DNA from: a virus
Lineage: Duplodnaviria; Heunggongvirae; Uroviricota; Caudoviricetes
DNA: 7,813 nt
Direction: 5' to 3' (one strand)
IMG/VR virus record: IMGVR_UViG_2529292715_000014
Span: 1-7,813 of that record
Every line of letters begins with the position of its first letter. Positions within the stretch are counted from its first letter, which is position 1. The translations under genes were made by a program, and so were the position numbers. Below the pieces are notes generated by a model. That model saw only the letters and a program-made list of their open reading frames with translations, did no database searches and had not been told where the DNA came from. Below, piece after piece: positions 2,940 to 3,211 of the stretch.

Positions 2940-3030
2940 TCGCCGTTATCTTAAAAAATCTCATCAGTCGGGTGTGGTTATCGGGACATAATCGATCGGT
3001 AATACAGATCGATTTAATTGATTCGATCGT
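2940..3030 (-). promoter_or_regulatory. mom promoter region (Pmom) with Dam-methylation GATC cluster
   Basis: Three GATC sites at 2994-2997, 3007-3010 and 3025-3028. A T6 run on the coding strand (2953-2958) lies just upstream of a candidate -10 TAAGAT (2948-2953). This fits the known Dam/OxyR- and C-dependent mom promoter architecture. Confidence 0.6.
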
Positions 3031-3211
3031 CGTTTTCTATATGCGTTCCTTTTTGAAGGCGCTTTAAAGCACGTTTTAATCCCGGTCGGTCTGTCCTTGT
3101 TCCGCTTAATTTATCTTCAAATATTTATTCACATCCTGCACAAACAAGAGCGTTTCGTTGCAGGTCTGTATTCTGGTCATTTGTTGATACCCTTACATAG
3201 CCAATCAGCAC
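3014..3211 (-). pseudogene. gin: Gin-family serine DNA invertase, pseudogene (premature stop at codon 29 plus large in-frame internal deletion)
   Basis: Minus-strand translation from GTG 3211-3209 gives MLIGYVRVSTNDQNTDLQRNALVCAGCE, then TAA at 3127-3125. Continuing in frame gives IFEDKLSGTRTDRPGLKRALKRLQKG, then jumps directly to THIENDDRIN and a stop at 3016-3014. The whole remnant is 198 nt, against roughly 190 codons for this family. Confidence 0.8.

Follow-up and report, generated by a model that had tools for sequence, protein, structure and literature searches.

A gin pseudogene in the decayed remnant of a Mu-like prophage at the dpiA locus of Shigella

We analyzed a stretch of 7,813 nucleotides of DNA (hereafter, the window) whose minus strand follows the gene order of the SfMu right end, with 92 to 96% identity. 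The features run along this strand in the order Sv (3′ part), U, U′ (inverted), S′v (inverted), a partial gixR, an internally deleted gin (Δgin), com, mom, and the phage right end (Table 1). From the 3′ end of gin through com and mom to the right end (1971–3052), DNA identity to Mu and SfMu is 96%. The tail-fiber assembly genes U′ and U form a 348-nt inverted repeat, 70% complementary, with arms at 5068–5415 and 5810–6157; this head-to-head layout is normal inside a G segment. The window does not hold a complete phage gene set (transposase, structural genes); besides the mom–Sv block, the source genome retains only IS600 and about 230 bp of attL.

Table 1 Features of the Mu-like element in the window. 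A slash marks a deletion junction.
Feature	Position	Strand	Details
Prophage right end (attR), adjoining dpiA	1971–2085	minus	target duplication CTGGG at 1966–1970
mom, intact	2086–2811	minus	241-aa ORF as in SfMu, 231 aa by gene callers; PF25680, profile positions 1–202 of 202
com, 62 aa, intact	2732–2920	minus	PF10122
gin–com intergenic, GATC-rich Dam/OxyR region upstream of the mom promoter	2991–3013	minus	25-nt opposite-strand BLAST match
gin remnant (198 nt)	3014–3211	minus	codons 1–55 = Mu Gin 1–55; codon 56 = junction codon; codons 57–65 plus stop = Gin 185–193
384-bp in-frame deletion junction, GG/AACG	3047–3048	minus	128 codons; junction 3048/3047
Nonsense codon, TAA for Gln29 (CAA)	3125–3127	minus	C to T at 3127 on the minus strand; from alignment to Mu and SfMu
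gixR remnant	3265–3280	minus	inner half-site TTCCTGTAAACC, GA crossover, and GG
S′ variable tail-fiber segment	3281–5034	plus	interrupted by IS1
IS1 within S′	4056–4823		target duplication (8/9 bp) TATTCCCG(G)
U′ tail-fiber assembly gene, ORF intact	5068–5595	plus	PF02413
U tail-fiber assembly gene, ORF intact	5624–6157	minus	PF02413
Sv tail-fiber segment, 3′ part	6160–6613	minus	SfMu homology ends at 6614; 5′ part, gixL, and constant S missing
IS600 (IS3 family), runs off the window	6614–7813	minus	replaces the Sv 5′ part, gixL, and everything upstream

The right end, which starts with TGAAGCGGCGCACG, adjoins dpiA at about codon 115 and makes a 127-aa fusion ORF. In the public collection this DpiA::Mu fusion protein, which is named from S. 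flexneri, occurs on 699 contigs. We fetched 12 Shigella loci (L004–L015, representing 11 independent places) around either the DpiA::Mu fusion or the S′::IS1 ORF. L008, which is the same as L012 (AKMX01000024), is the window's own contig and is 100% identical to it over the whole window. There, about 230 bp of the Mu left end, including TGTATTGATTCACTTGAAG, come after IS600, and the 3′ part of dpiA comes next. Both Mu-type ends survive (window 1966–1971 and L008 16294–16530), and the two halves of dpiA share a 5-nt overlap, CTGGG, which is the hallmark target duplication of Mu. On these features, the element is the remnant of a Mu-like (SfMu-like; Muvirus) prophage that transposed into dpiA (citB), a host response-regulator gene. 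The sensor kinase gene dpiB (citA, 1–1527) carries a 1-nt deletion (a missing G) at about position 1472 relative to S. boydii L007 and E. coli, and the resulting frameshift gives a 508-aa product instead of one of 552 aa. With dpiA interrupted and dpiB frameshifted, both genes of the DpiBA two-component system are therefore predicted to be inactivated in this lineage.

Two side observations concern the region between gin and the right end. Both com and mom are full-length in 12 of the 12 Shigella loci, despite the loss of the activator C and of nearly all else, and their divergence is too low to separate selection from recency. In the gin–com intergenic region, a 9-nt loop at 2998–3006, TGTATTACC, is the reverse complement of the Mu sequence GGTAATACA and has inverted arms on either side, ATCGATC and GATCGAT. 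Compared with the two phages, Mu and SfMu, this is a micro-inversion of a hairpin loop that preserves the GATC sites, and it is common to L004–L010; in L004 and L005, the loop is the reverse complement of the SfMu loop variant.

Translation of 3014–3211 on the minus strand gives VLIGYVRVSTNDQNTDLQRNALVCAGCE, a stop, IFEDKLSGTRTDRPGLKRALKRLQKGTHIENDDRIN, and a second stop. Once the first stop is read as glutamine, residues 1 to 55 are identical to Mu Gin at 55 of 55 positions (BLASTP, E = 8e-40), and the tail, HIENDDRIN, corresponds to Gin 185–193, the last nine residues of the protein. The Gin chains in PDB entries 4M6F and 3UJ3 match the remnant at E values of about 1e-34, a similarity that lies far beyond chance. 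The GTG start codon in the window is the native start of Mu and SfMu gin, and the synteny gix–gin–com–mom–attR is conserved. Together, these comparisons confirm, at the level of sequence, that the interval is a gin-derived pseudogene and the ortholog of Mu and SfMu gin. The preliminary description allowed that the stretch between com and the gix site might not derive from gin; both the protein and the DNA alignments show that it does. A tblastn search with Mu Gin over the window and the 20 kb around it in seven related genomes found no other Gin-like sequence, and hence no rival full-length invertase in the interval.

The lesions were placed by a three-way DNA alignment of the window, Mu (AF083977), and SfMu (KP010268). 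In the retained 5′ 164 nt of gin, two positions differ from Mu: the synonymous replacement of CGC by CGT, and the substitution that turns codon 29 from CAA into TAA, which is the sole coding change in this part of the gene. At the deletion, the left flank CTTCAAAAAGG ends at 3048 and the right flank AACGCATATAG begins at 3047. The CTTCAAAAAGG–AACGCATATAG spacing is 4 nt in the window and 388 nt in both Mu and SfMu; therefore 384 bp, or 128 codons, have been lost in frame. An imperfect 5-nt repeat lies at the parental breakpoints, AAAGG on the left and AAACG on the right. The preliminary description, made from the window alone, had proposed a nonsense codon at position 29 together with an in-frame internal deletion of 120 to 130 codons joined near 3041–3049. 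The alignment to Mu and SfMu agrees on both lesions, and both the measured loss and the mapped junction fall within the ranges proposed.

We then compared the predicted 65-residue product with other serine recombinases. The remnant covers only profile positions 2–63 of 145 of the Pfam Resolvase domain (PF00239), so that the catalytic domain is incomplete, and a Pfam search returned no match to HTH_7 in it; Mu Gin, for comparison, spans Resolvase positions 2–144 and carries HTH_7 at residues 138–181. The claim that the catalytic and DNA-binding segment is missing is thus upheld, as is the recognition of the catalytic-serine context YVRVSTNDQ in the surviving N terminus. Residues of Tn3 resolvase that are crucial for catalysis are Y6, R8, S10, D36, R68, and R71 (PMC2794168). 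The remnant aligns with residues 3–59 of the γδ and Tn3 resolvases, and the equivalents of Y6, R8, S10, and D36 survive in it, around Ser9. Gin R65 and R68, in the motif KLDRLGRS, are the counterparts of Tn3 R68 and R71 and fall within the deleted 128 codons. Using the Gin domain boundaries of PMC3575834, helix E, which serves oligomerization, and the helix-turn-helix DNA-binding domain were also lost with the deletion. Having lost all of these, the deleted 65-residue product would already have been unable to bind gix or to cleave DNA before the stop codon arose. In the window the reading frame is further broken by the TAA at codon 29, which would have no added functional effect on top of the deletion.

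The recombination sites on which Gin would act are damaged as well. An 11-bp deletion (TTTTRGATAAT) at 3265/3264, directly upstream of gin, takes out 10 bp of the 12-bp outer half-site of gixR (window, TTCCTGTAAACCGAGG/GGCCG; Mu, TTCCTGTAAACCGAGGTTTTGGATAATGG); four of the 12 outer positions still match, by chance. The sole exact gix half-site in the window lies at 3269–3280. Even with 3 mismatches allowed, the 26-bp gix has no match in the window, which accordingly contains no pair of inverted sites, and no long inverted repeat corresponding to gixL and gixR was found there. Neither the window nor any related locus contains gixL, and each Shigella locus examined has one partial gix only. DNA invertases require two complete sites with a dimer on each, plus a Fis enhancer (PMC3798978, PMC3575834). 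Published Fis sites are located about 550 bp upstream of the mom start (PMC3378877), which by arithmetic corresponds to an approximate position of about nucleotide 100 of gin, inside the retained 5′ 164 nt. The part of the gene that bears the enhancer is thus probably still present, with nothing left to act on. The G segment has the orientation of the Mu and SfMu reference records, G(+), and this orientation is identical in 12 of the 12 Shigella loci. Because one complete site and half of the other are gone, the segment is predicted to be frozen in G(+), with inversion impossible either in cis or in trans. The preliminary description had argued that the phase-variation switch cannot be driven in cis; the two lesions in gin bear this out, and the lost sites would bar a source in trans too.

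We next examined how these lesions are distributed among relatives of the window. The loci are 99.7 to 100% identical overall and include S. flexneri FDAARGOS_713, serotype 3a (L004; PMC9455713), S. boydii 600080 (L007; CP049606; PMC7545283), and a complete chromosome (L014; CP032513.1) that matches the window at 100% identity across 6756 nt. All 12 Shigella loci carry the junction string CTTCAAAAAGGAACGCATATAG, which neither Mu nor SfMu has. L004–L010 have the gixR deletion and the loop inversion in common, and their corresponding 371-nt segments are equal in length and differ only by SNPs. The gin and gixR deletions are therefore old; in particular, the presence of the gin junction in all sampled loci indicates that this deletion predates the split of the sampled S. 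flexneri and S. boydii loci. The nonsense codon has a much narrower distribution. Of the 12 loci, only the window's own contig and CP032513.1 carry TAA, and another locus (L015) differs from the window at one base in 3969 nt, position 3127. Since two independent assemblies carry TAA and L015 differs at that base alone, the stop codon is real, recent, secondary, and specific to a sublineage.

The IS elements and their surroundings vary among the loci. The IS1 in S′ is absent from L009 and L010. In L006 and L007, an IS1 is found elsewhere, after window position 3610, with unrelated DNA beyond it (phage integrase, mod genes), an arrangement that implies a putative IS1-mediated deletion or rearrangement. 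In L009 and L010, c, ner, and a truncated transposase A are still found beyond IS600, and Sv extends 261 bp further. Relative to them, the window lineage lacks these 261 bp of Sv (L009 14214–14474) and the c–ner–A′ block, and the losses flanking IS600 are nested IS-adjacent deletions.

Three other readings of the remnant were weighed against this evidence. One is that sequencing or assembly errors in a draft genome produced the stop codon, the deletion, or both, given that the 2012-era draft contig AKMX01000024 has the same sequence as the window. The junction, however, is shared by 12 loci whose assemblies are independent and include several closed chromosomes, and TAA recurs in the independent complete genome CP032513.1; such recurrence essentially refutes this explanation, to which we assign next to no probability. 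It is about equally implausible that gin is dead while the G segment is still switched in trans by another invertase of the Pin/Gin/Cin family. Pin-type invertase genes (pinB, pinD, and pinF) are reported in Shigella subgroups, invertases of the Gin family cross-complement one another, and the Fis-enhancer part of gin, as approximately positioned above, is retained. Yet such an enzyme would need two complete inverted 26-bp sites, whereas only half of gixR is left and gixL is absent from all related loci; moreover, both alternative tail-fiber genes are truncated, and the 12 loci share one orientation. With gixR half-deleted, gixL absent, S′ split by IS1, and Sv cut by IS600, a search for a trans-acting invertase is moot.

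The remaining reading holds that the in-frame 65-residue product has been kept as a functional mini-protein, perhaps one that acts as a dominant-negative modulator of Pin/Gin-family invertases whose genes lie elsewhere, and that TAA is a recent loss of this function. In its favor, the deletion keeps the frame exactly, 9 of the 11 independent Shigella places have the ORF without interruption, and this 65-aa form has been called as a gene on 623 public contigs, where it is annotated as “recombinase family protein [Shigella flexneri]”. Nevertheless, one deletion in three is in frame by chance, and at 99.7 to 100% identity among loci an intact 198-nt ORF is expected by chance as well. Loci that vary by only about 0.1 to 0.3% differ too little to reveal selection on the ORF. 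A product devoid of helix E, the dimer/tetramer interface, and of the DNA-binding domain has no obvious way to poison a partner, and the neighboring phage functions are all decaying. A scan around the remnant, uninformative in itself, returned no sigma-70 promoter-like site, upstream or otherwise, and no terminator-like site. We consider a functional mini-protein very improbable, although a shade less so than the two preceding explanations.

Instead, the remnant is almost certainly a nonfunctional gin relic in a heavily decayed Mu-like (SfMu-like) prophage that transposed into dpiA in an ancestor of several Shigella lineages. The identity of the sequence, its lesions, and its distribution among genomes are direct observations; from them we infer the loss of function, the mutational mechanism, and the following order of events. 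A Mu-type transposition into dpiA would have come first, duplicating the 5-bp target CTGGG. The 384-bp in-frame deletion in gin may then have arisen, probably by illegitimate recombination or slippage at AAAGG/AAACG. We prefer this mechanism because the breakpoints show an imperfect 5-nt repeat and no gix-like sequence; aberrant recombination mediated by Gin itself was considered as the cause and rejected, as only that repeat is found there. To the same step, with no order among its three lesions, would belong the 11-bp deletion of the outer gixR half-site and the 9-nt hairpin-loop inversion upstream of com. An IS600-associated loss of about 30 kb, including gixL, and the insertion of IS1 into S′ would have followed. 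The last step would be a very recent C-to-T change that made codon 29 TAA in one S. flexneri sublineage.

Because gin sits in a relic of roughly 6 kb of a prophage of roughly 37 kb, these changes represent general prophage decay rather than the specific inactivation of a live phase-variation switch. A further possibility, which we raise tentatively and regard as rather doubtful, is that the dpiA::Mu insertion, together with the gin deletion, the gixR deletion, and the loop inversion, all of them identical, goes back to a single ancient event common to the serotype 3a lineage of S. flexneri and to S. boydii clade B1, and marks either common ancestry or recombinational exchange. If true, the locus would provide a rare-genomic-change marker across Shigella clusters that are usually treated as independent origins, and the nested later lesions (IS600, IS1, the adjacent deletions, and TAA) would provide a relative clock of prophage decay.

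Overall, this is ordinary pseudogenization in a dead prophage of an IS-rich Shigella genome, and the element is already public, though poorly labeled. In hundreds of Shigella genomes, the 65-aa ORF called as a “recombinase family protein” should carry a gin pseudogene flag, and the G segment at the dpiA locus should be left out of counts of phase-variable invertible elements. A shared deletion, lineage-specific IS events, and a private nonsense codon make up a nested set of lesions that serve as convenient lineage markers. Beyond annotation the locus has little import, but it illustrates stepwise prophage decay in textbook fashion.

Jakhetia and Verma (2015, PMC4406740) reported cryptic SfMu remnants from S. 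flexneri. Like the present element, theirs is a Mu-like remnant 94 to 96% identical to SfMu, and strains bearing it did not yield a gin–mom PCR product of the size expected, a result that would fit a shortened gin. That paper does not appear to give a nucleotide-level description of this dpiA-located remnant, of its gin deletion, or of the nonsense allele.

The closest known systems are the G-segment invertase gene gin of Mu (PDB 3UJ3, 4M6F) and its SfMu ortholog, which the remnant resembles in its position in the order gixR–gin–com–mom–right end. Residues 1–55 and 185–193 are identical or near-identical to theirs, and the GTG start and the neighboring genes are alike. The remnant differs from them in lacking Gin residues 56–183/184, a stretch that comprises half of the catalytic domain, including R65 and R68, as well as helix E and the helix-turn-helix, and its locus differs in the TAA at codon 29, the half-deleted gixR, and the loss of gixL. 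The pin gene and P segment of e14 in E. coli K-12 likewise constitute an invertible tail-fiber cassette on a defective prophage, and e14 pin and Shigella pinB, pinD, and pinF are reported to be active. With these the dpiA locus shares a tail-fiber cassette of the Gin/Pin/Cin/Hin type, carried by a defective prophage in Escherichia or Shigella; in contrast to those active systems, it has had both its enzyme and its sites destroyed.
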